Assembly (NCBI GenBank): GCA_038203255.1
Contig: JBBREE010000003.1
Location: forward strand, 1 to 52,961
Length of the DNA: 52,961 nt
Direction of reading: 5' to 3'
Origin: Candidatus Moraniibacteriota bacterium
GTDB lineage: Bacteria > Patescibacteriota > Minisyncoccia > Moranbacterales > UBA2206
Shown: piece by piece, positions 1,582 through 50,000 of the stretch
Numbering within the stretch: position 1 is the first letter of the stretch
How the letters are laid out: each line of letters opens with the position of its first letter
Translations under genes and position numbers: made by a program
Notes under the pieces: model-generated
Seen by the model: the letters and a program-made list of their open reading frames with translations, nothing else
Told to the model about the DNA's origin: nothing
The model's database searches: none

Positions 1582-2703
1582 ATGGCTAAGACAAAAATAA
1601 TCAATAAAGATGAAACAGTTGACGTTAGGCTCCTTTATGCTCTTTTCACACTGCTTTTTTTTGGTCTTATTATGATTGCTTCGGCTGGGATTTCCTATTC
1701 CCATCTTCGCTTCGATGATCCTTATTATTTTTTCAAACATCAGTTTTTTTACGGGGTCATTCCTGGGCTTATAGTTTTATATATCGTTCAGAAAATAAAT
1801 TATAATTTTTGGAAAAAAATATCACTCCCTTTCTTTCTTTTGAGTCTTATTTTTCTTGTCCTGGTTTTTGTGCCAAATTTTGGATCACGTATTTATGGTG
1901 CTAGTCGTTGGATGCGATTGGGTCCTTTCTCTTTTCAACCTTCGGAAATGTTGAAATTATCAATCATTCTTTACCTATCGGCGTGGCTTGAGAGTCGGAA
2001 AGAAAAAGTGAAAGATTTTTATGAAGGGCTGGTGCCTTTTGGGGCGGTGGTGGCTCTGGTTAGTTTTCTCCTTATTAAACAACCTGATATCGGAACCCTG
2101 GGTATTATTATCGCCATTGCCATTTCTATTTTTTTCGTTTCCGGTGCTAAATTGTCGCATATGGCTATTTTAGGTTTTTCCGGAGTGTTCGCTCTTTGGA
2201 TTTTGGTTAAATTGGAATCTTATCGCATGAGTCGTTTTCTTGTTTTTCTACACCCAGAACTTGATCCGCGCGGAATTGGTTATCAAATCAATCAAGCTCT
2301 CTTGGCTATCGGATCGGGTGGAATTTTCGGGGTGGGACTTGGTCATAGTTTGCAAAAATTCAATTATCTGCCTGAACCGGTAGGTGATTCTATTTTTGCT
2401 ATAATCGGAGAAGAGATAGGCCTTGTGGGGTGCGTCGTCCTGATTGCTATTTTTGTGTATGTGGCTATTTTGGGTTTGCGTATTGCCAAATCTGCTCCAG
2501 ACAGATTTTCTCAACTCGTGGCGGTGGGAATAATTGTTTGGATAATTTTTCAGGCCTTTGTAAACATGGCGGCCATTTCTGGCGTGATGCCTCTGACTGG
2601 CGTGCCGTTACCTTTTATCAGCTATGGCGGAACATCGCTCATATTTTTAATGACCGGTTTTGGAATTTTACTCAATATCTCGAAGTATGCGAAAGTAAGA
2701 TAG
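1582..2703 (+). CDS. ftsW: SEDS family peptidoglycan polymerase FtsW
   Basis: GASRW, FQPSE, QPD, LPEPVGDSIFA, PLTGVPLPFISYGG; adjacent to murG. Confidence 0.93.
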   Translation: MAKTKIINKDETVDVRLLYALFTLLFFGLIMIASAGISYSHLRFDDPYYFFKHQFFYGVIPGLIVLYIVQKINYNFWKKISLPFFLLSLIFLVLVFVPNFGSRIYGASRWMRLGPFSFQPSEMLKLSIILYLSAWLESRKEKVKDFYEGLVPFGAVVALVSFLLIKQPDIGTLGIIIAIAISIFFVSGAKLSHMAILGFSGVFALWILVKLESYRMSRFLVFLHPELDPRGIGYQINQALLAIGSGGIFGVGLGHSLQKFNYLPEPVGDSIFAIIGEEIGLVGCVVLIAIFVYVAILGLRIAKSAPDRFSQLVAVGIIVWIIFQAFVNMAAISGVMPLTGVPLPFISYGGTSLIFLMTGFGILLNISKYAKVR

Positions 2704-2736
2704 GGAGAATTTTAAATATTTAACCATATAATTTTT

Positions 2737-3840
2737 ATGCGTATAGTTCTAACTGGCGGTGTGAGTGGTGGTCATATTATTCCTCTTATCGCCGTGGCTA
2801 AAAAAATCAGAGAAAAAAATCCGGAAGTTGAATTTTTATTCGTCGGTCCACAGGGTGAAATGGAAGAACGCCTTATGTTTGAAGCGCAAATTCCGATTAA
2901 GAAAATCTTAACTGGAAAGATGAGGCGTTATTTTTCTTGGTATAATTTTTCCGATGCGCTGAAAATTCCCCTTGGGACAATTCAATCTCTTTGGGTTTTG
3001 CTTCGATATATGCCCAATGCCATTTTTTCCAAGGGAGGCGCAGCCTCGCTCCCGGTAGTTTTAGCCGGATGGGTGTATCGCATTCCGATTATGATTCACG
3101 AATCTGATGCTAATCCCGGAATGGCTAACTCTATGCTGGCCAAATTTTCCAATCGAGTGGCGGTATCATATTATTCGGCAGAAGAGTATTTCCCTTCCGC
3201 CCAAGTGGTTTTGACCGGTAGTCCACTAAGAGCGGACATTAATCAAGGCACGGCGCTTAGAGCGAGAGAATTATTTCCACTCACTGATTCAAAAAAAACT
3301 ATTTTTGTCTGGGGTGGTTCACAAGGAGCAGGGATTATAAATGAAAAGATTGTGAAAATTTTGCCCGAGTTACTCAGGAAATATCAAATCATTCATCAAA
3401 CTGGAGAAAAAAACCTTGAAGCTGTTAAGCATATGGCGGGTGAATTAGGAATTAAAGCGGGGCACGATGGGTATTACCCAGTAGCTTTTATTGGGGAGGA
3501 ATTAAAAGATGTTATCGCTGTGTCAGATATTATAATTTCTCGTGCGGGAAGCAGTTCAATCGCTGAAATTGCGGCCAATGGCAAGCCCTCTATTATAATT
3601 CCGATCGAGCATTCGGCTAACGGGCATCAGAGAATGAATGCTTATGCGGTGGCTAAAATAGGTGGTTGTATTGTACTCGACGAAGGTAATTTAGGAGATA
3701 ATATGTTGAAAGCCAAAATAGACGAGGTTTTGGGTGACGAAGCATTACAGAAGGAGTTGGGGGAGAAGATTAAGAAATATTTCTATTATCCAGATGCGGC
3801 GGACAGAATCGCGGATGGGATTTTAGGGATGATAAGATAG
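2737..3840 (+). CDS. murG: Undecaprenyl-PP-MurNAc-pentapeptide GlcNAc transferase
   Basis: GGVSGGH, HESDANPG, GGSQGA, SRAG, HQxxNA motifs. Confidence 0.95.
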   Translation: MRIVLTGGVSGGHIIPLIAVAKKIREKNPEVEFLFVGPQGEMEERLMFEAQIPIKKILTGKMRRYFSWYNFSDALKIPLGTIQSLWVLLRYMPNAIFSKGGAASLPVVLAGWVYRIPIMIHESDANPGMANSMLAKFSNRVAVSYYSAEEYFPSAQVVLTGSPLRADINQGTALRARELFPLTDSKKTIFVWGGSQGAGIINEKIVKILPELLRKYQIIHQTGEKNLEAVKHMAGELGIKAGHDGYYPVAFIGEELKDVIAVSDIIISRAGSSSIAEIAANGKPSIIIPIEHSANGHQRMNAYAVAKIGGCIVLDEGNLGDNMLKAKIDEVLGDEALQKELGEKIKKYFYYPDAADRIADGILGMIR

Positions 3841-3870
3841 AGTTTTTAATTTATAAATTTTAAAATCGAT

Positions 3871-5271
3871 ATGGACCTGGAGAAAATAAAAAAAGTTTAT
3901 GTTGTTGGCATCAAGGGTTCTGGCGTAATCGCGGCGGTGGATATTTTGCACGCCATGGGAAAAGAAATCACCGGTTCTGACACGGAAGAAAAATTTTTCA
4001 CTGATGGCATTTTGGATAATTTGGGGATAAGATACTTCGAGAAGTTCTCCGAGTCTAACATACCGCCAGAGACTGATTTGGTAATTTATTCCACGGTTTA
4101 TAACCAAGAGAATAATATCGAGATGAAATATGCAACGGAAAATAAGTTGCCTATGATGAGTTACCCGGAACTTCTAGCCCATCTTTTTAATCAAAAATTC
4201 GGCCTTGCCGTCACAGGGACGCACGGAAAAACGACCACCTCCGCTATACTGGCTAACGTCCTGAAAGATTGCGGAGTTTCTCCAAGCGCTATAATCGGCA
4301 GTCGAGTTTTAAATTGGAAGGGAAGCGCCCTGGCCGGTCAGGGGGAATTTTTTGTGGCAGAGGCGGATGAATATCAAAATAAATTAAGACTGTATGATCC
4401 GAAAGGCGTGATTTTGACCAGTTGTGATTTCGATCACCCGGATTATTTTGAAGATTTTAAAAGTTACAAAAAGGCTTTTAAAGATTTCGTGGCACGTATT
4501 CCGAAAGATGGGTTTTTGGTAACCTGGGGAGACGCGACGGATACTCTGGAAGTAGCGGAAAGTTGTCCGGCGAAATTTTTGACGTATGGATTTTCCAAGG
4601 ATGTGGATTTTAAAATTATAAATTCCAATTTACAAAACTTCGATGATCAAAATTCAAAACCAATGCAAAGCTTTGAAGTTGTCTATAAGGATGAAAGTTT
4701 AGGTGAGTTTCATATACAACTTTCAGGCAAGCATAATATTTTAAATGCCACTGCGGTTATCGCGGTTTGTCATAGATTGAAGATTGATATGGAGAAAGTG
4801 CGCGCATCCATAAAGGATTTTCTGGGAACGGCGCGTCGTTTTGAATATATTGGTGAGCGTAATGGTGCTATTCTTATCGATGACTATGCTCATCATCCGG
4901 AAGAAATCAAGGCGACTCTCTCCGGCGCTCGGGCAAGATTTCCGGAAAAAAACATTTGGGCGGTTTTTCATCCTCACACCTTTACTCGTACCAAAGCGCT
5001 TCTTTCGGAATTTTCGCAAAGTTTTTCTGACGCGGATAAGGTGATTGTGTTGGATATTTATGGCAGTGCCCGTGAAACTCGAGGAGGAGTGCATTCAAAG
5101 GATTTAGTCAAACTAATTGATCAGTTCGGCCGAGGTAAAGCGCAATATTTACCGACAATCTCTGAGGCAGTGGAACACTTAAAGGAAGAAATTGGTTCGG
5201 ACGATGTGGTCATTACCATTGGCGCCGGCAATGTTTGGGAAGTGGCGCAGAAATTGGCAGAGGGGGAATAA
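3871..5271 (+). CDS. murC: UDP-N-acetylmuramate--L-alanine ligase
   Basis: GIKGSG, GTHGKTTT, EADE, DHPD, DDYAHHP, FHPHTFTRT. Confidence 0.95.
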   Translation: MDLEKIKKVYVVGIKGSGVIAAVDILHAMGKEITGSDTEEKFFTDGILDNLGIRYFEKFSESNIPPETDLVIYSTVYNQENNIEMKYATENKLPMMSYPELLAHLFNQKFGLAVTGTHGKTTTSAILANVLKDCGVSPSAIIGSRVLNWKGSALAGQGEFFVAEADEYQNKLRLYDPKGVILTSCDFDHPDYFEDFKSYKKAFKDFVARIPKDGFLVTWGDATDTLEVAESCPAKFLTYGFSKDVDFKIINSNLQNFDDQNSKPMQSFEVVYKDESLGEFHIQLSGKHNILNATAVIAVCHRLKIDMEKVRASIKDFLGTARRFEYIGERNGAILIDDYAHHPEEIKATLSGARARFPEKNIWAVFHPHTFTRTKALLSEFSQSFSDADKVIVLDIYGSARETRGGVHSKDLVKLIDQFGRGKAQYLPTISEAVEHLKEEIGSDDVVITIGAGNVWEVAQKLAEGE

Positions 5272-16134: not shown

Positions 16135-17457
16135 ATGAAAAGAACATTGATTGCCAAGACGCTAGGATTAGTCGGAGAAAGAGTGCGAATCTCAGGCTGG
16201 GTGAGTGTCAGGCGTGATCATGGCAAGCTTATCTTCATTGATTTGCGTGACCGCAGTGGTCAGGTGCAACTGGTAATCATTCCAGACAAAGCTGAAGCTT
16301 ATACGACCTCCAAGGAGGTGCGTGCTGAATTTATCGTGTCTGCTGTTGGCTTAGTGAAAAACCGTCCAGGCACGCAGGTGAAAGAGGACGATCCGCTAAG
16401 TGCGGTGGAAATTGAAATTGAAACGCTCGAAATTATTTCTCGCGTAGAAGGGGAATTGCCGTTTGATCCGAGCAAGAAAGATTTGGATGTGAACATTGCG
16501 ACTATGCTCGACAATCGCAACTTGGCCATGCGTAACAAAAAAGTAAATGATATTTTCAAGGTTTATGCACAAATCCTTAAGTCGTACGGAGATGCCTTGC
16601 GAGAGAATGGTTTTTTAGAAATAAAAACTCCTAAAATTGTGAACGCGGCCACGGAAGGCGGAGCGAATTTTTTCAAGATAAAATATTTTAAACGTGACGC
16701 TTTTTTAGCCCAGAGTCCTCAGTTTTATAAACAAGCCGGGGTGGGTGCTTTTGAGCGAGTGTTTGAAATCGGGACGGTTTTTCGAGCGGAACCGCATTTC
16801 ACCACGCGTCACGTTAATGAATATACGGGACTGGACGCCGAGATGGGTTTTATCGAAAATATGCGCGATATCATGGATCAATTGCAATCGACTTTGAAAA
16901 GGATAATGCAAGAAGTGCGTGAAAATTGCGCTGACATTTTGACGGAATATGCCAGTGGAGATCTTTTGGTGCCGGAGCAATTTCCACGCATCAAATTGAC
17001 TGAAGCACTGGAAATTCTCAAAAAGGAATATGGTAAAGAAATAGAAGGATTGGATATTGATCCGGAGGGCGAGCGCTTGATTTCGCAATGGGCTAAAAAA
17101 ACCTATAACAGCGATTTCATTTTTCTTACTCATTATCCGGTAACAGTTCGCCCGTTTTATACTATGCCGAGCGCCGATCCGCATTATACTAATAGTTTTG
17201 ATCTGATTTTTCGCGGAGTAGAAATTGCTACTGGTGGTCAAAGGATTCATAATTACCATCAACTGGTGGCTAGCATCAAACGTCACCATTTAGATCCAAA
17301 AGATTTTTCGTCTTATTTGGACATCTTCAAACTGGCTATGCCACCGCACGGTGGTTGGGGGCTGGGAAGTGAACGCATCGTGCAAAAAATCCTTGGCCTT
17401 GATTCCATCAAAGAAGCCATTCTTTTTCCAAGAGATGTTAAGCGGTTGACGCCGTAG
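16135..17457 (+). CDS. aspS: Aspartate--tRNA(Asn) ligase, short archaeal-type non-discriminating AspRS
   Basis: 440 aa, no GAD insert; [40 protein letters not shown]. Confidence 0.9.
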
Positions 17458-17640
17458 GGAAGTTTAATTTTGATTATTTGACAAGATAGCACTGTGGAAG
17501 TAGTGACGACTATTGTAAAATTGTGATTTCCGGTATTTTCAGTATCAGTTTGTTATCATTGCAGCAAAGGAGTTTACACTTTATGGATAAGAAAGTGAGC
17601 TTAAAATATCATCAACTATCAGTAATTTTTGGATAAAAAT

Positions 17641-18402
17641 ATGATAAAAAAAGCATTTTTAAAAGACTTTTTTTTAGTTCTGTTATATCCGGCGGGTATT
17701 TTATTGTTTCTCGTTTTTCTTTTTGCCGTTGCTTACTATACCGATTTCATTCCGCACAACCATTATGTCAAAGGCGATATTAATAACATTGTTTACGCCG
17801 AACCGACTCAGGAAGCGAAGGATTTCGATGTAGAAGGGTTTGTTAATTCTCTTCCGAGCGTAGAATATAAAAAAGTAGATTATCCAATTAAAGAAACACA
17901 CACTTACGAATTCAATGGCTATGTCCTGACAGTGGATATTCCAGAAGGGTTTGATGTGTATGAGCTGGAGCATAAGCCTGAAGTTATTAATTCGACTAGT
18001 ATCGAAGATTCGTGTGAATATATAGGTGGCATGAGTACTTATTGTGATGGGCCAGAAGGAGGTATATTCAAGGGAGCATTTGAGCAATCTGGTAGTATAT
18101 TGTGTATAGATAGCGGAGATAAATCTTGCGGAGCTGATGGCGTTAGAATATGGCCATACAAATCAAAATATAAGGGGATCAGCTTGCGAGATGTATATAT
18201 GCGCAGCTCGGGATATAAACAGACTAAATATGTTTTAAATGATATATTTTTTGCAGGAACCTCTAACGAGTACAACTCTTCCATGGGAGCACTTATCTCA
18301 GATCAGCAAGGAATTGGCGTATCTTCCGGCTTCTATTCCTCTAATTTTTCCAAAGATCTCTACTTTAGCATACTAGATTCCATAAAAATCAGAAAAAAAT
18401 AA
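17641..18402 (+). CDS. Membrane-anchored PsbP/DcrB-like protein (cassette 1 partner)
   Basis: N-terminal TM; TYEFNGYVLTVDIPEGF; C-terminal ILDSIKI; paralog of 20201..20974; fold assignment is inference. Confidence 0.6.
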   Translation: MIKKAFLKDFFLVLLYPAGILLFLVFLFAVAYYTDFIPHNHYVKGDINNIVYAEPTQEAKDFDVEGFVNSLPSVEYKKVDYPIKETHTYEFNGYVLTVDIPEGFDVYELEHKPEVINSTSIEDSCEYIGGMSTYCDGPEGGIFKGAFEQSGSILCIDSGDKSCGADGVRIWPYKSKYKGISLRDVYMRSSGYKQTKYVLNDIFFAGTSNEYNSSMGALISDQQGIGVSSGFYSSNFSKDLYFSILDSIKIRKK

Positions 18403-18475
18403 GCAAAAATATTCTTACTGCAGCACGCAAAATGGTTCGATAATTAAGATAAATTTTTTAAACAACAATGAATTT

Positions 18476-18862
18476 ATGCAAAAAGAAGATATAAAAAAGA
18501 TTAAAAAGAAAACAATAACGCTAGCGGGTATATTTTTAGTGCTGGGTATTTTGGTTGTTTTTGGTCTCGCCTTATATTTATCCTTTGGTTTTATGGCTAG
18601 ATACGGGAACAAAAAAAATATGAGAGATAGACAGACTTATGGTTATTTAATTTCTGGCAGAGGGTGTAATGATATGACAGACGCTTCAGATGGTGAATTA
18701 AGGAAATATATTAAAGAGGATATCCTGAGCGAGATTAGCAAAAAAAAATTCAAGAGCATATTGACAGAAGAAAAAGAAATATATGAAAGGGGAGGAACTG
18801 GTAAAAATGACAGTTGTTATATTATGATTGATCGTGTTAGTAAAATTATTGATGGTATGTAG
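18476..18862 (+). CDS. Single-TM hypothetical protein
   Basis: Basic N-terminus, TM, small domain with two Cys; no counterpart in cassette 2. Confidence 0.65.
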   Translation: MQKEDIKKIKKKTITLAGIFLVLGILVVFGLALYLSFGFMARYGNKKNMRDRQTYGYLISGRGCNDMTDASDGELRKYIKEDILSEISKKKFKSILTEEKEIYERGGTGKNDSCYIMIDRVSKIIDGM

Positions 18863-18903
18863 ACACTTTTAATCGTTGTATATATAGAAAAGTTTGGCAA
18901 GGG

Positions 18904-18928
18904 GATCTTTAACAATTAAATAAAGGAG
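18904..18928 (+). promoter_or_regulatory. boxA-like motif plus Shine-Dalgarno
   Basis: GATCTTTAACAATT (18904-18917) resembles rrn boxA TGCTCTTTAACA; AAGGAG at 18923-18928. Confidence 0.55.
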
Positions 18929-18934
18929 AATGAG

Positions 18935-20158
18935 ATGGCTAAAAAGATGGTGTTTTGGATTGTATTATTTATTGCTTTGGGGACTTTTTCGCGAGTAGCT
19001 TTGGCTGATGTAGGGTCCTGCGTAGAATGCAGCGGCCTGATGGACGGTGCTTGTCTGGCAGAAAAATATCTTCCTTTTAATCAATTTAACACAGACTCGA
19101 GTTCTGAGCGAGAGTGGTCAGCTTTCGAGGGAAATTTTTTTGCCAAAGATAATATGATCGGCGTTCGTTTCAGATTAGACGATGAATCAAAGAGAACGCT
19201 TAATCAAGGAGGGCTTGGATTAGAGGTTGAAATTATTGAAAAAGGCGGGCATAAGTTGAATTGGGGTCTCCTTATTCACAATCTACCTAGCAACGCTAGG
19301 ATTACGGATGATACAAGGGCACTTGATAATGGAGGAGATACCGTAAATGCGGTTTTAATTCGTAACCCGGAGAAGCTTAGTGTGGGAAAGGATTATTATA
19401 TCTGGTTTATTTTTAGGGATTCAATTCCTAAAGAAGGGGTTACAATTCAGCCGAATATAGTTATTGATATTCACACTAGTTGTTCTGATTTTGATTTTAT
19501 TTGTTTAGATGTAAATGATCCAGAAGCATGCGAGTATTTTGAGATGGAGACGGACTCATTTAGGCCGTTCGTCGCTTATCCAGATAGTAGAGAAGGCGTA
19601 ATATGGAATAATAAAAAATCAAGTGAGAAATATACTCCCAACCTTCAAGAAGTTAATGGGTTTTGGTATGTTTCTTATAATATGAATCCATCCAATCTAG
19701 GAGGTATATATTATATTGCAACAAAAGATGAATCGGGTGCTGTTGTGAGCGCATATAACCCTCAAAGTTCCGAAGACTCCGAAACCGACCCCGGAACATC
19801 ATCCGGAGACTATGGCAAAGTAACCATGTCCACACCAAGCAGTTCCTCTTCAAAATCGGAACTCTACGTCAAAGAACTGAAATTCAAAGACGAAAAGACC
19901 AAATATTATGACGATGAAACAGGCCATGCTTATGCCACAGCCAAAAATGTCGGGATAGACGCGCCCGACACGGACATTAAGATTAAACTTTTCCGCTTCA
20001 AAGGTGAAACTGAAAACGGAGACACGAAAGAGGTGGGAAGTGAGAACATTAGAGGAACGAATCTAAAATCTGGCGACAGCAAGGAAGAAGGATTTTCATT
20101 CGGCGCTCCAGATGACACTCGTAAATTTGATGTGTCAGTTGACATTTTCCTGCATTAA
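18935..20158 (+). CDS. Secreted Cys-rich protein with C-terminally truncated CARDB-like constant region
   Basis: Signal peptide (..VALA-DV); unique N-domain; Ser-rich linker and domain nearly identical to 21066..22841, ending ~180 aa earlier. Confidence 0.75.
   Translation: MAKKMVFWIVLFIALGTFSRVALADVGSCVECSGLMDGACLAEKYLPFNQFNTDSSSEREWSAFEGNFFAKDNMIGVRFRLDDESKRTLNQGGLGLEVEIIEKGGHKLNWGLLIHNLPSNARITDDTRALDNGGDTVNAVLIRNPEKLSVGKDYYIWFIFRDSIPKEGVTIQPNIVIDIHTSCSDFDFICLDVNDPEACEYFEMETDSFRPFVAYPDSREGVIWNNKKSSEKYTPNLQEVNGFWYVSYNMNPSNLGGIYYIATKDESGAVVSAYNPQSSEDSETDPGTSSGDYGKVTMSTPSSSSSKSELYVKELKFKDEKTKYYDDETGHAYATAKNVGIDAPDTDIKIKLFRFKGETENGDTKEVGSENIRGTNLKSGDSKEEGFSFGAPDDTRKFDVSVDIFLH
19770..20078 (+). 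repeat. Constant-region direct repeat, copy 1 (partner 21994-22302)
   Basis: Core 19824-20078 vs 22048-22302: 7 mismatches in 255 bp by manual count. Confidence 0.95.
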
Positions 20159-20167
20159 ATCTAAAAT
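20139..20167 (+). promoter_or_regulatory. sigma70 promoter of cassette 2, overlapping the end of the truncated gene
   Basis: TTGACA (20139-20144), 17 bp, TAAAAT (20162-20167). Confidence 0.75.
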
Positions 20168-20200
20168 ATCATCAATGATCAGTAATTTTTGAATAAAACT

Positions 20201-20974
20201 ATGACAAAAAAAGCATTTTTCAAAAGACTTTTTTTGATCCTGTTATACCCAGCAGGCGCTTTACTGTTCCTTGTAGTTCTTTTCGCTATTGCATATTATT
20301 CGGATTTCATCCCGCATAATCACTACGCAAAGGGTGATATTAATGACATTATTTACGCCGAACCGACTCAGGAAGCGAAGGATTTCGATGTGGAAAAATA
20401 CATAGATAGTCTCCCGAGCGTGGAATACAAACATATCGATTACCCTATCAAGGAAACTTATACTTACGAATTTAATAATTATATTTTAACAGTCGATATA
20501 CCGGAAGGGTTTAAAGCTTATGAATTTAAATTGGCAGGTAATCCGAGAGTAATAGACTCTACGAATATTGAGGATTCGTGTGACAGGCCTGGCGCAAGAA
20601 GTTTATGTACTGGGCCGAAAGACGGGATATTCAAGGGCTCTACAGTGTTTCCGGATAAGCTTCTTTGTATCGGTAAAAATAATAATATAGGAAATAATTG
20701 CAATGGTGATAGTATAAAGATAAGTCCGTATAAATCTCAGTATAAAGGCATTAGTTTGCGCGATATATATGTGAATATGCTAAGATATAATGAAGATAAA
20801 TATATTGTAAGGGGGGTGTTTTTTTCTGGATATTGCAATAATTATAATTTTTCATTGGGAACATTGCTTTCTGATCAACAAGGCCTAGGAATTTCTACAG
20901 CATCTTTTTCATCTTCATTTTCAAGAGATTTACACTTGAGCATTCTAGATTCCATCAAAATCAGAAAAAAATAA
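20201..20974 (+). CDS. Membrane-anchored PsbP/DcrB-like protein (cassette 2 partner)
   Basis: Paralog of 17641..18402 (DFIPHNHY, YAEPTQEAKDFDVE, ILDSIKIRKK identical); central loops diverged. Confidence 0.6.
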   Translation: MTKKAFFKRLFLILLYPAGALLFLVVLFAIAYYSDFIPHNHYAKGDINDIIYAEPTQEAKDFDVEKYIDSLPSVEYKHIDYPIKETYTYEFNNYILTVDIPEGFKAYEFKLAGNPRVIDSTNIEDSCDRPGARSLCTGPKDGIFKGSTVFPDKLLCIGKNNNIGNNCNGDSIKISPYKSQYKGISLRDIYVNMLRYNEDKYIVRGVFFSGYCNNYNFSLGTLLSDQQGLGISTASFSSSFSRDLHLSILDSIKIRKK

Positions 20975-21065
20975 GCAAAAAATATTTTTACTGCAGCACA
21001 CAAAATGGTTGTGTATTGCATGAGAATGTCTTTAGTCCATTAAAAACAGAATAAGGAGGCAGCAA

Positions 21066-22841
21066 ATGAAAGTGAGAATTTTGACTAGTATTTCTTTTGT
21101 AATGATATTTATGTTTTTGGCAAATATCGTTACCTACGCATCTAACCCTTCTGATTGTAGCAGTATCGATGTTAAATGTGTCAAAGATCAATTTGGTCTT
21201 AGTACGATTAATAAGGCTATTGATCCTTGGACTCCCGAAAAAGGCGCTGTTCTTTTTTACGGAGAAAGCAGAATATTTACGGCTTATCTATATTTTGATG
21301 GAACAGCTAAAACATTCTACGAAAACAATCCTTGGGCTGGTTTTGAGATTGATATCAATTTCCAAGGCATTAATAACTACACTATTCCCAGAATTGACCC
21401 GGATTCCGTAGCTGGCCCATCAGGAACAGATCCTTTGAGGGATACGATTATCGGAGACTGGAGCACCGCTACACGCGGGATAACCGTCACGCACCCATCT
21501 TCCCTGAAAGAGGGTTGGAATGTTTTTAGTTTCCAGTTGAAAGATGATTTCTTTGTTGATTTGGGCAATAATGTTCCCATTAAGGCTAACATCCAATTGG
21601 TTGCTAATGTTGCCAGTTCAAGTTTTATAAACACATTAACAGAAAGGAATGATTTTAGTTGGGTCGCCGAGTGGCTTTATAGATGGATTGTCATTGGTGA
21701 AATTGGAAACGTAGGGTCGCTTAGAGGCGAAGTATTTCGGTATTTTACGATGGATAATTTTCAGCAGGCATTGAGCGGAGATAATCCAGTTAATATTACC
21801 TCGTCTGACCAATGGCAGGGTCTCTGCTGGAATAGCTCTGATCCGGATATCTCCGCAAAAGAATGTGACTCGTCAAACTTTGTAGCTTTGATGAACGCGT
21901 CTTCTCAACCTCAAGACAACTCTCAAAAGCAGAATCTAGAGGGATTTATTGGACCGGTTCTAAATACCGGCGGAGGATATAATCCTCCTAATCCCGAAGC
22001 CTCCGAAACTGACCCTGGACAAACTAGTGGGGACTACGGCAAAGTCACCATGTCCACACCAAGCAGTTCCTCTTCAAAACCGGAACTCTACGTCAAAGAA
22101 CTGAAATTCAAAGACGAAAAGACCAAATATTATGACGATGAAACCGGCCATGCTTATGCCACAGCGAAAAACGTCGGGATAGACGCGCCTGACACGGACA
22201 TTAAGATTAAACTTTTCCGCTTCAAAGGTGAAACTGAAAACGGAGACACGAAAGAAGTGGGAAGTGAGAACATCAGAGGAACGAATCTAAAATCTGGCGA
22301 CACTAAACAAGAAGAATTTGATTTCAGTATTCCGGATGACGAAGGAGTCTATCCATACTACGCGGTCATTGATACAAGTGGTGCAGTTTCTGAAGCCAAT
22401 GAAAACAATAATCGCTTGGGCAATATCCGTCTCAGGGTGCATCATCGGCCAGACATCCATGTTAGTGAATTGACTTTAGATGACGGGCGAGCTCAATTTG
22501 ATCAACAAGAATTTGTCAAAGGCAAAGTAACAGTCACTAATACCGGTGGAGAACCCTTTATTGATGTGCCGGTTCATTGGTATCTCGACGGCAAGCATAT
22601 CGGAGACGATAATATGCGACACTGGAACATTGAGAATGGAGACGAAAAACACGAAGATATTTACGTTCTCATTCCAATTGTCATCGGAACTCACACATTT
22701 AAAGCCTGTGCCGAACTGGACGCTGATCGTGATCAAAGGGATAATTGTAAGCAAATTACTTTTCAGGTTGTTGAATCTTCACCAGCTCCAAGTTCTCAAA
22801 TGAGCTTAATAGCTCCTGTCGATTTCAAGATTGTTGAATGA
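21066..22841 (+). CDS. Secreted protein: variable N-domain + Ser-rich linker + two CARDB/Ig-like domains (full-length member)
   Basis: Signal peptide; AVIDTSGAVSEANENNN and RPDIHV..VTNTG..GTHTFKACA..DNC CARDB-type motifs; SD AAGGAGG at 21053-21059. Confidence 0.8.
   Translation: MKVRILTSISFVMIFMFLANIVTYASNPSDCSSIDVKCVKDQFGLSTINKAIDPWTPEKGAVLFYGESRIFTAYLYFDGTAKTFYENNPWAGFEIDINFQGINNYTIPRIDPDSVAGPSGTDPLRDTIIGDWSTATRGITVTHPSSLKEGWNVFSFQLKDDFFVDLGNNVPIKANIQLVANVASSSFINTLTERNDFSWVAEWLYRWIVIGEIGNVGSLRGEVFRYFTMDNFQQALSGDNPVNITSSDQWQGLCWNSSDPDISAKECDSSNFVALMNASSQPQDNSQKQNLEGFIGPVLNTGGGYNPPNPEASETDPGQTSGDYGKVTMSTPSSSSSKPELYVKELKFKDEKTKYYDDETGHAYATAKNVGIDAPDTDIKIKLFRFKGETENGDTKEVGSENIRGTNLKSGDTKQEEFDFSIPDDEGVYPYYAVIDTSGAVSEANENNNRLGNIRLRVHHRPDIHVSELTLDDGRAQFDQQEFVKGKVTVTNTGGEPFIDVPVHWYLDGKHIGDDNMRHWNIENGDEKHEDIYVLIPIVIGTHTFKACAELDADRDQRDNCKQITFQVVESSPAPSSQMSLIAPVDFKIVE
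21994..22302 (+). repeat. Constant-region direct repeat, copy 2
   Basis: Offset 2224 bp from copy 1. Confidence 0.95.
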
Positions 22842-22855
22842 AACCTTTTTTCAAG

Positions 22856-22893
22856 AAACGCTCCTGCCTGAATAAGCTGGAGTGTTTTTATTT
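22856..22893 (+). terminator. Intrinsic terminator closing island 1
   Basis: AAACGCTCCTGC...GCTGGAGTGTTT followed by T tract. Confidence 0.6.
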
Positions 22894-22909
22894 TGTAAAA
22901 ATCATGATC

Positions 22910-22938
22910 TTGGAAAAAGATTGTAGTTGTGCTATTAT
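22910..22938 (+). promoter_or_regulatory. sigma70 promoter for scpAB
   Basis: TTGGAA, 17 bp, extended TGcTATTAT. Confidence 0.6.
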
Positions 22939-22967
22939 ATGGGGAGTAAAATAAATTCTACCCGGAT

Positions 22968-23675
22968 ATGGCTTATAACGTGAAATTGGAAAAATTTGAG
23001 GGCCCGATGGAGCTTCTTTTGGAGTTGATTAATAAGGAAAAATTAGATATCACGGAACTCAGTCTTTCCAAAGTGACGGATGAATTCTTGGAACATATTA
23101 GAAACAATGAAAACATCCATTTGGAACATCTAGCTGATTTTTTGACAGTGGCGGCGCGCCTCATTCTTATCAAATCCAAAGCTATTTTACCGATGCTCAA
23201 ATTCAGTGAAGAAGAAGAGGAGGAAATTAAGGATTTAACATATCAATTAGCAGAATATAAAAAATTCAAAGAAGCCTCTTTAAAGTTGGGCGCGATGGCG
23301 GAAGAGCGTCATATTTGTTATTCGAGGGAAGGTTTTATCGGTGTTGCGCCGGTTTTCTATCCGCCGGAAGATTTGAATGCGTATGATCTTAAAAAATATT
23401 TCTTATCCGTACTTTCTGAGATTCCGATTGTCGAAAGATTGGAAGAAGAAATTGTTTCCGAAGTGATAACCTTGGAAGAGCGTATTAATGATTTAGAGAC
23501 AATGCTGAGGGAAAAAGTTCAATCATCCTTTTCCTCTTTAGTGGAAAAAGCGAAGGATAAGGTGGACGTGATCATCTCTTTTTTGGCGATGTTGGAAATG
23601 GTAAAGCAAAGGATTATAATGGTAGATCAAAAAGAATTATTTGAAGAAATACAATTAAGTATGAAAAATCAATAA
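22968..23675 (+). CDS. scpA: Segregation and condensation protein A (kleisin)
   Basis: FEGPMELLLELI, IKSKAILP, SFLAMLEMVK. Confidence 0.95.
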   Translation: MAYNVKLEKFEGPMELLLELINKEKLDITELSLSKVTDEFLEHIRNNENIHLEHLADFLTVAARLILIKSKAILPMLKFSEEEEEEIKDLTYQLAEYKKFKEASLKLGAMAEERHICYSREGFIGVAPVFYPPEDLNAYDLKKYFLSVLSEIPIVERLEEEIVSEVITLEERINDLETMLREKVQSSFSSLVEKAKDKVDVIISFLAMLEMVKQRIIMVDQKELFEEIQLSMKNQ

Positions 23676-48736: not shown

Positions 48737-48804
48737 AAAGTACGCAGTTAATTGGCTAGTGTGTGGATGTAAGTAATCTTAAATTTTTCTGAGGAGGACA
48801 TAAA

Positions 48805-49509
48805 ATGACTTGCTTTAAGCGATTAATGGGTATAATGTCAATTGTTATACTTATACTTGTTTCATTCTCCAATCTTGCAGTATCTGCGCAGACATTCACA
48901 TGCACTAAAGGAGTATTTCGTGATAGCATAGGAAAAAACAAAGGAGATGTTGATGGTCAGTGTGTTATGTATGTTAGATATGAAACAGGCATATTATCTA
49001 GCGGATGTAATGGTGAGGCTTGGAGATGTTATCAGGAGGCTATTACTGCTGGATATACCGTAGGGCAAAAACCAAGAAAATCAGCAATTGTTGTTTTCAA
49101 TAAGGTAGGTACTGGCGCTCTCTCTGTTGGGCACGTCGGTATTGTTAAATCGGTTGATGGTAATAAAATACTTATTAGGGATTCCAATTGGGTTGCTCCT
49201 TACACTGTCGGAGAACATCAGGAGGATATTACCGAGCGTGATATTTTAGGCTATATCTACTGCGACGGGAAATCAGAAGAAAGTCAAACTGAAAAAATCC
49301 CTTTCCGTCTCTTGTTCAACTTGGCCTGGTACCCAGCAGATAAGACGTGCGTCAATGCAGAGAAGTGGATCCTGTCAGGTTCGAATGGACCGGAAACTTT
49401 CACTTCAAACGGCGTATGCTACTCTCAGTTCAGCAGTTTGGATTATGCATGGTGGTGGGATATTGTTTTCGGCTCAGGAGATCTTACCGAAATTAACGTT
49501 TGTAAGTAG
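48805..49509 (+). CDS. Secreted CHAP-domain (Cys/His amidase) protein with additional C-terminal domain
   Basis: Signal peptide; GQCVMYVR, GYTVGQKP..AIVVF, GHVGIV, DSNW. Confidence 0.85.
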   Translation: MTCFKRLMGIMSIVILILVSFSNLAVSAQTFTCTKGVFRDSIGKNKGDVDGQCVMYVRYETGILSSGCNGEAWRCYQEAITAGYTVGQKPRKSAIVVFNKVGTGALSVGHVGIVKSVDGNKILIRDSNWVAPYTVGEHQEDITERDILGYIYCDGKSEESQTEKIPFRLLFNLAWYPADKTCVNAEKWILSGSNGPETFTSNGVCYSQFSSLDYAWWWDIVFGSGDLTEINVCK

Positions 49510-49535
49510 GATAAACTATCAAGCAGGAGGTTAAT

Positions 49536-50000
49536 ATGGGATTAGCAAGGATAGGAATTCTCGCAGCTTTTCTAGTTTTTGTTTCTATGCAAGAACTCTC
49601 TCACGCAGGAGATTGCGGAAGCATAATCTATATGGATGTCGGCAGTAATGGAAATAGCAGTTCCGGAAGCAGTTCTGACACTTGGAAAAACGAACCTGCC
49701 TATGTCCCTCCATCCGATGGGTCAAGTAGTTCCGGCGGCAAACCGGATTTTATTGTGCCCGAACTCTACGTCAAGAATCATAAAGCGGTTTTTCGTCCCG
49801 GTGAAGATATGAAAATAATGGTCCGGGTCAAAAATATCGGTAATGCGACGCCCAATCATGACGTAAAGATAAAATATTGGCGGTCGGACGGATATCAAAT
49901 TGATCCTAAAGATGATCGCAAAAAAATCGATACGGACAACATTAAAAGTAGCAATCTTGACCCTGGGGGAGTTTTTATTTTTCTCATAAATTGGCTATAA
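49536..50000 (+). pseudogene. Secreted CARDB-family gene truncated at the island boundary
   Basis: SD, signal peptide, KPDFIV..VKNIG..IKYWRS..NLDPGG then unrelated VFIFLINWL* ending at the 47-bp repeat. Confidence 0.65.

Follow-up and report, generated by a model that had tools for sequence, protein, structure and literature searches.

The window analysed here is the whole of contig JBBREE010000003.1 (C3; 52,961 nucleotides, forward strand) from the draft genome of a Candidatus Moraniibacteriota bacterium (assembly GCA_038203255.1; 1.08 Mb in 58 contigs, 94.6% complete). Two neighbouring genes in it, termed gene A and gene B, share a near-identical tract of 255 bp, the copies of which are offset by 2224 bp. 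This tract, referred to below as the patch, was probably left by RecA-type homologous recombination that took place recently between two tandem cassette units, themselves diverged. In each unit a membrane protein with an ectodomain (the anchor) is encoded first and a secreted protein second, the latter composed of a β-sandwich head, a Ser/Pro/Asp-rich linker and CARDB domains. The patch could have arisen by gene conversion or as heteroduplex repaired after a crossover. The features on which this reading depends are the following.

18935-20158, + strand: gene A, the truncated copy (407 aa: signal peptide, head N1, linker and CARDB1 without its last strands)
19753-19823, + strand: left flank of the patch, in the linker; diverged homologue of 21977-22047
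19824-20078, + strand: patch copy A, the near-identical tract
20079-20144, + strand: right flank of the patch, the tail of gene A; diverged homologue of the gene B sequence after 22302
21066-22841, + strand: gene B, the full-length copy (591 aa: signal peptide, head N2, linker, CARDB1 and CARDB2)
22048-22302, + strand: patch copy B, near-identical to patch copy A

The comparison of 19824-20078 with 22048-22302 was recomputed and agreed with the initial annotation: the copies differ at seven of 255 positions (six synonymous differences and one Ser/Pro exchange) and lie in the same codon phase (phase 1 of both open reading frames). The longest exact run common to both is 65 bp, and the genome contains exactly two DNA copies of the repeat. 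Homology reaches past the patch, with 89.6% identity over the 364 nt of 19753-20116 and 21977-22340, and a weaker, gapped likeness of the gene A tail to gene B persists to about 20144. Differing bases number 7/255 in the patch, 18/71 in the left flank and 13/38 in the right flank (20079-20116); for the flanks taken together (31/109) against the patch the Fisher test gave p = 3.9e-12. Synonymous divergence per site (dS, Nei-Gojobori) was 0.119 in the patch, 0.86 in the linker flank, ∼2.0 (1.96) in the tail flank and ∼2.0 between the two anchor genes, and the corresponding non-synonymous values (dN) were 0.005 in the patch, 0.22 in the linker flank and 0.26 in the anchors. The anchors, aligned as 17602-18437 against 20162-21010, share 70.7% identity over 859 aligned nucleotides and 63% at the amino-acid level, which upholds the earlier statement that the repeat is far more alike than the anchor paralogues. 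High identity is thus bounded on both sides by homologous, diverged sequence, the pattern that defines a gene-conversion tract.

Among 20 aligned members of the family, copies A and B alone share a two-residue deletion and the motifs GETENGD and IRGTNL, none of which occurs in the other 18. Just past the patch, the identity of gene A to gene B (35% over 26 residues) does not exceed that to other members (27-50%). The low patch dS relative to the flanks and anchors, together with derived features exclusive to the two copies, bears out the 'recent conversion or exchange' that the initial annotation had suggested. The sole non-synonymous difference is TCG (Ser) at 19856 against CCG (Pro) at 22080; the proline is invariant across the family and the serine is found in gene A only, which hints at relaxed constraint on the cut copy. 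Old heads, anchors and flanks of intermediate age and a young patch with shared derived characters form a mosaic of ages that points to homologous recombination between the units. RecA (PF00154) is encoded on contig C1 (E = 8.5e-139).

Diversity-generating retroelements are reported to be common in genomes of the Candidate Phyla Radiation (CPR), and this genome does contain a reverse-transcriptase open reading frame, on contig C16. A template/variable repeat pair of such an element, or of another site-specific system, is nevertheless an extremely unlikely origin for the two copies and is refuted by the mismatch pattern: adenine occurs in either copy at only two of the seven differing sites, and six of the seven are synonymous. 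The repeat does not lie at the 3' end of a target gene, and no Rfam match was found at E ≤ 0.1 within 17400-23000. No integrase, resolvase or reverse transcriptase was found on contig C3 (integrases are on C54 and C6, a resolvase on C33), nor any meaningful inverted repeats, the longest inverted pair being 28 nt at 71%. Since the mismatches are not adenine-specific and the contig lacks a reverse transcriptase or recombinase, inverted repeats and Rfam matches, both retroelement diversification and inversion systems were excluded; site-specific inversion or a shufflon was rejected as a candidate for want of inverted repeats and of a recombinase at the locus. The reverse-transcriptase match (C16, 1714-2289, - strand) is the only RVT_1 match of the genome, lies in a 505-aa open frame and is unrelated to the locus.

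An assembly artefact (chimerism of the contig, or collapse or duplication of the repeat) had to be considered because the genome is a metagenome-assembled draft in 58 contigs and repeats are typical points of misassembly. Read evidence was taken from the Logan contigs of three public runs of one study at a depth of ∼3-7, which may include the source sample. These contigs run from head 1 into copy A (19696-20021, no mismatches), from the end of copy A into anchor 2 (20034-20290, no mismatches) and from head 2 through copy B (21770-22427, one mismatch). Assembly collapse or chimerism is unlikely, because contigs bridge each head into its own copy and the exact runs, of at most 65 bp, can be resolved by reads; the collapse that the initial annotation had named as its own refutation thus finds little to favour it. 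Seven copy-specific letters, moreover, keep the copies apart. Although the runs are perhaps not independent of the assembly, we regard an artefact as very improbable. A joint listed between 18173 and 20976, with 23 foreign letters between and a side of 21, was discarded, as it consisted of two tiny matches only.

The two units can be delimited by their mutual likeness, for which the remaining parts of the locus are needed.

17602-18437, + strand: left part of unit 1, with the anchor-1 gene and conserved non-coding stretches on both sides; aligns to 20162-21010
17629-18402, + strand: anchor-1 gene (257 aa: N-terminal membrane helix and ectodomain)
18476-18862, + strand: small membrane-protein open reading frame, in unit 1 only (128 aa; from the list of open reading frames)
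20139-20167, + strand: promoter-like site (TTGACA, 17 nt, TAAAAT; 11/12), overlapping the gene A tail and upstream of anchor 2
20145-20161, + strand: unit junction, ∼17 nt without counterpart in either copy, containing the last codons and the stop of gene A
20162-21010, + strand: left part of unit 2, with the anchor-2 gene (open reading frame 20189-20974, 261 aa)

From 20162, which is equivalent to 17602 and lies three bases past the gene A stop, unit 2 resembles unit 1, so that unit 1 extends over ∼17602-20144, the junction over 20145-20161 and unit 2 from 20162 onwards. From the sequence, the layout appears to be a tandem array in which the unit spans from the region upstream of the anchor to a point within CARDB1. 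The junction falls inside CARDB1 of the upstream gene, and therefore gene A lacks the last CARDB1 strands and the whole of CARDB2; the full two-CARDB module is present in gene B only. Gene B passes the Pfam CARDB model (PF07705) in two stretches with E = 1e-11 and 45.4 bits against a gathering threshold of 22.7, and gene A gave no CARDB match in the Pfam search at E ≤ 0.1, because the domain is cut. In gene A an AAGGAG ribosome-binding site precedes the ATG by 7 nt, and the product has its own signal peptide; gene B likewise has an AAGGAG-type ribosome-binding site and a signal peptide.

Four relatives were found for head N1 (gene A residues 25-275). Three of them, P0002 (598 aa, 61%), P0003 (533 aa, 53%) and P0009 (756 aa), carry N1 with the same linker and two CARDB domains and run on through both domains past the end point of gene A, and the fourth, P0004, joins N1 to PKD domains. 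Head N1 on a full CARDB module, for which the initial annotation had proposed a search among relatives, was accordingly present in three of the four. N1 on the full module is therefore the ordinary form among relatives, and gene A is a derivative truncated at the unit junction. These relatives are orthologues from other organisms (50-61% identity), which point to the ancestral form of gene A rather than to recombinant alleles at this locus. Residues 256-274 of gene A (window 19700-19756) form an insert of 18-20 residues relative to the head-1 orthologues. An origin of this insert from the last CARDB1 strands was considered and dropped: the likeness is at the protein level only, and at the DNA level 166 of 500 shuffles (mean score 18.4) reached the observed score of 20.

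Head N2 has a different distribution. None of the 16 representatives with an N2 head, counted by BLASTP in a library that comprises 1.84 billion proteins, has the module, the best CARDB likeness to it being 24-26%, and at four of five anchor homologue loci elsewhere an N2-type head is encoded in the next downstream gene. Anchor and N2 thus form a conserved pair and N1 and the module a conserved fusion, from which it follows that gene B is a chimera of head N2 and the two-CARDB module. The heads had been described as unrelated, which did not hold. BLASTP of N1 against N2 gave no match and the two are only ∼21% alike, yet profile comparison with hhalign identified them as remote homologues (92.4% probability, E = 5e-7, 191 columns). 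Comparable values were obtained for N1-N3 (92.9%) and N3-N4 (93.7%), and head N5 served as an internal negative control with at most 4% probability against any other head. One protein, P0097, matches both heads by BLASTP (N1, E = 1e-23; N2, E = 4e-6).

The predicted structure of head N2 (predicted local distance difference test score, pLDDT, 83; predicted template-modelling score, pTM, 0.81) is a β-sandwich with helices, the matches of which are generic only: adhesin, pilin, cohesin and carbohydrate-binding-module (CBM)-type sandwiches. The best Foldseek match was the N2 domain of a collagen adhesin (E = 9.5e-4, TMq 0.21) and the best VIA Z score was 5.1 (CBM3b, pilins and Bap), and no family was assigned to head N2 from its fold. 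For the anchor (pLDDT 72.5) the best Foldseek match had E = 4.6e-3 with a template-modelling score of at most 0.41, so that the fold search gave no match at E ≤ 0.001; one of 30 Atlas neighbours carries PF27181 (YvcA_Mog1p). A Mog1/PsbP-like fold of the anchor ectodomain (as in PsbP, MTC28 or TplEi-type domains) is a lead only.

The module with its Ser-rich linker is a narrow CARDB subfamily, with 15 clusters outside this genome among 5.8 billion. At least seven kinds of head are joined to it (N1, N2, N3, N4, N5, CHAP and M23), and two members are headless. When head type was mapped onto the module tree, 12 label changes were counted against a shuffled mean of 11.4, and well supported module clades mix heads (M23 with N5; N3 with N4 and headless members). 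Head type thus does not follow the module tree, and the histories of variable and constant parts are incongruent at the level of the family, not within this species. In CPR bacteria the family probably serves as a modular system, secreted or at the cell surface, in which heads that may be adhesin-like β-sandwiches, or CHAP or M23 peptidoglycan hydrolases, would be borne on a common two-CARDB stalk. An alignment search with head 1 found no related loci in genome contigs and two CHAP-module loci in metagenome contigs, and a literature search found no paper joining CARDB with the Candidate Phyla Radiation.

Several further proteins touch on this family. At the C-termini of P0002, P0010, P0012 and P0018 a stretch rich in Gly and Ser leads into a 'GCF[IA]' type motif, with a hydrophobic tail after it in P0018; the motif is absent from genes A and B. 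Such an ending may be a C-terminal sorting or lipidation signal. Contig C19 (133-2283, - strand) encodes a 717-aa paralogue in which an N1-like head (35%) is joined to three CARDB-like domains that differ from the module. A membrane protein of 198 aa is encoded ahead of it, and both genes are found together in another genus as well (G012:C13). Within the window, 48802-49997 holds a CHAP-type open reading frame (235 aa) followed directly by a 161-aa open reading frame with a signal peptide and a cut CARDB domain; judged by sequence, this looks like a split version of the CHAP-module fusion that is whole in metagenome locus L043.

The distribution of heads bears on a shorter history, in which a single recent copying event brought in a foreign head-1 gene (or a head-2 unit) through one crossover in CARDB1, the patch being the piece native on both sides. 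Head orthologues elsewhere are 46-61% identical and the heads are far less like each other, so that at least one was brought in, and the patchy occurrence of the anchors (five of 300 other genomes of the order, and none of 70 from the own family) and of the module (seven of 318 other genomes of the order) fits horizontal spread. One crossover, however, leaves one boundary, and the patch is bounded on both sides by diverged homologous sequence. A double event or heteroduplex repair would thus still be required, which is recombination between tandem units in another order of events, and as an account of its own the single event is improbable.

This genome offers a second case. A truncated upstream head copy on contig C52 shares a patch of 89 bp at 96.6% identity (1101-1189 against 2113-2201), with flanks at 77% identity, with a full gene of head N4, module and dockerin. 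On this evidence, partial tandem duplication with patchy conversion seems habitual for the module family. C52 (4459 bp; features at 813-1208 and 1825-3993) holds the third module gene of the genome, in which head N4 is followed by two CARDB domains and then a dockerin-like tail; the truncated head copy and a second small membrane-protein open reading frame lie upstream of this gene. The ends of C52 (1-112 and 4348-4459) overlap by 112 bp at 100% identity, as in a circle or a collapsed tandem repeat.

The repeat had also been described as using many C-ending codons. The patch is indeed enriched in them: the fraction of cytosine at third codon positions (C3) reaches 0.32-0.33, where the genome averages 0.180 (standard deviation 0.067), at the 96-97th percentile, and third-position G+C (GC3) is 0.47-0.48 against a genome mean of 0.377, at the 89-92nd percentile. 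The enrichment is no mark of exchange, because the CARDB1 segment is richer in C3 than the remainder of the gene in all seven family genes examined, five of which are single-copy genes in other genomes or contigs. GC3 as a sign of foreign origin or of biased conversion was rejected on the same ground.

Two routes to the present arrangement can be drawn. A unit may have been duplicated in tandem in situ, with later replacement of one head and subsequent conversion; or a circular foreign unit may have integrated by a Campbell-type event at the linker-CARDB1 homology, in which case the patch would be the heteroduplex zone. Both routes give the same topology and are not separable here. In either case the repeat would be a substrate for unequal crossing-over, and a deletion of 2224 bp, the reverse of the integration of a circular unit, would remove anchor 2 and head 2 and restore head 1 on the full module. 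Joining the genes anywhere in the repeat gives an open frame of 560 codons with a terminal stop only, in agreement with the in-frame fusion that had been predicted. The repeat had also been described as able to swap N-terminal domains. As a possibility this stands, given the in-frame fusion, the presence of RecA and the relatives with N1 on the module; as an occurrence it finds no backing, since no joint skipping 2224 bp was found in the contigs of the three runs, a weak test at a depth of ∼3-7 with contigs that drop rare variants. The swap would be a one-way deletion, this potential is a by-product of the architecture and not a demonstrated switch, and programmed switching is unsupported.

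A selected cassette-switching device would hold gene A and anchor 1 as a reserve head, to be moved onto the full CARDB stalk through a maintained 'constant' tract so as to alter surface specificity in a subpopulation. Several observations speak for it: the fusion preserves the reading frame, the deletion would leave anchor 1 and head 1 together as one unit, heads are shuffled against the module across the family, the locus lies in a variable islet (see below) and contig C52 provides a second truncated upstream copy with a high-identity patch; known precedents, Rhs/CDI orphan activation (PMC3967940) and the lpl cluster of S. aureus (PMC2568036), operate in this manner. We consider the device unlikely all the same. 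Neither a deleted nor an expanded form appeared in the run contigs, itself a weak test; a one-way deletion keeps no further cassettes in reserve; gene A, with its own ribosome-binding site, ATG and signal peptide, is not silent; the repeat is present in two copies only in this genome and no other tandem array was found among the 318 other genomes of the order searched with the module; and the exchange of a family-invariant proline for serine in gene A resembles relaxed constraint, not upkeep.

It is also conceivable, though unlikely, that the units (anchor promoter, anchor, head, linker and partial CARDB1) behave as mobile cassettes that bring along no recombinase, which would circularize between CARDB1 tracts and re-integrate with host RecA at CARDB1 of any resident module gene, the patch being the attachment site. 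If so, episymbiotic CPR bacteria could exchange or switch heads on one two-CARDB stalk and hence host or substrate specificity. Taking switching and cassette exchange together, there is a slim chance that a selected system of this kind operates.

Recombination between tandem units remains the preferred explanation, and the following points weigh against it. The 6:1 ratio of synonymous to non-synonymous differences reflects protein constraint, so that non-synonymous likeness is owed in part to selection rather than to copying. The recombination was not directly observed: none of the three same-genus genomes has the locus, and there are no conspecific genomes. One contig of run X1 shows T, the gene A letter (Ser), at 22080 in gene B context, which could be a real polymorphism or the result of bubble-popping between the copies during contig building. 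Contigs of only three low-depth runs of one study, possibly including the source sample, cover the region. The history, moreover, takes at least three events (duplication or integration, head replacement and conversion).

The locus lies between aspS (16135-17457) and scpA (22968-23675), which enclose five + strand open reading frames. The gap between the two genes is 5.5 kb here (window 17458-22967) and 1.9, 3.8 and 0.7 kb in the three same-genus genomes (G001:C18, G002:C15 and G003:C13, respectively). Contents are unrelated, and the anchor and module genes are missing from all three; the site is therefore a hypervariable islet in this Moranbacteria (CPR) genome. In the same-genus genomes the 1.9 kb interval holds a HAD-type and another open reading frame, the 3.8 kb interval one 1230-aa secreted protein and the 0.7 kb interval no long open reading frame. 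The promoter-like site at 20139-20167 is the best match of the region, by consensus only, with 23 sites found against 18.3 expected from shuffles. Neither gene A nor either anchor matched a family in Pfam or NCBIfam. The same searches gave no family for the small membrane-protein open reading frame at 18476-18862, which showed no significant likeness to the 198-aa membrane protein on C19.

Ultra-small CPR bacteria live attached to other cells, and to our knowledge almost nothing has been established about the diversification of their surface proteins. The locus indicates that paralogous genes for surface proteins undergo ordinary homologous recombination in a 1.08-Mb genome, and shows that one narrow two-CARDB 'stalk' has been combined with many heads, from adhesin-like β-sandwiches to the cell-wall hydrolases CHAP and M23. 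The outcome is a concrete and testable family consisting of the anchor protein, the head superfamily (N1-N4) and the stalk.

Two known systems are close in architecture. In the lpl cluster of S. aureus, a conserved central tract in each tandem open reading frame is described as a recombination site that shuffles the variable halves (Tsuru & Kobayashi, 2008; PMC2568036). The present locus resembles it in having tandem genes for surface proteins of the host-interaction type in a genomic island, a conserved stretch inside the open reading frames as the site of homologous recombination and incongruent flanking variable parts. It differs in having two units only, a truncated upstream open reading frame and a membrane-protein gene in each unit; lpl rearrangements are documented, whereas those proposed here are inferred. 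Orphan Rhs fragments are activated when they recombine with the main gene (Koskiniemi et al., 2014; PMC3967940). In Rhs and contact-dependent inhibition (CDI) orphans, as here, a fragment adjoining the full gene keeps homology to it, recombination joins the variable domain of the fragment to the constant part and each variable domain travels with a small partner gene. Unlike these orphans, the present locus has mirrored polarity, with the variable head N-terminal and the fragment upstream; the fragment has its own start and signal peptide and is not silent, no recombinants were observed, and neither heads nor anchors are shown to have a toxin or immunity function. The locus thus has the structural properties of the lpl and Rhs systems (a shared tract, in-frame fusion and shuffled histories), the silence of the fragment excepted.

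Against CARDB (PF07705) proteins in general, gene B lies above the curated threshold, and its two-CARDB module with the Ser-rich linker forms a narrow subfamily of them. The patch itself compares with concerted evolution by gene conversion between bacterial paralogues, a RecA-dependent process that leaves a patch of near-identity, synonymous sites included, inside older diverged paralogues; arrays of type VII secretion system (T7SS) immunity genes are reportedly a related case. No essential difference from this process was found. The repeat is a textbook conversion tract and establishes no new mechanism. We class the patch here, as a tract of gene conversion or crossing-over between tandem paralogues, probably an ordinary result of recombination and of a kind that is already known.

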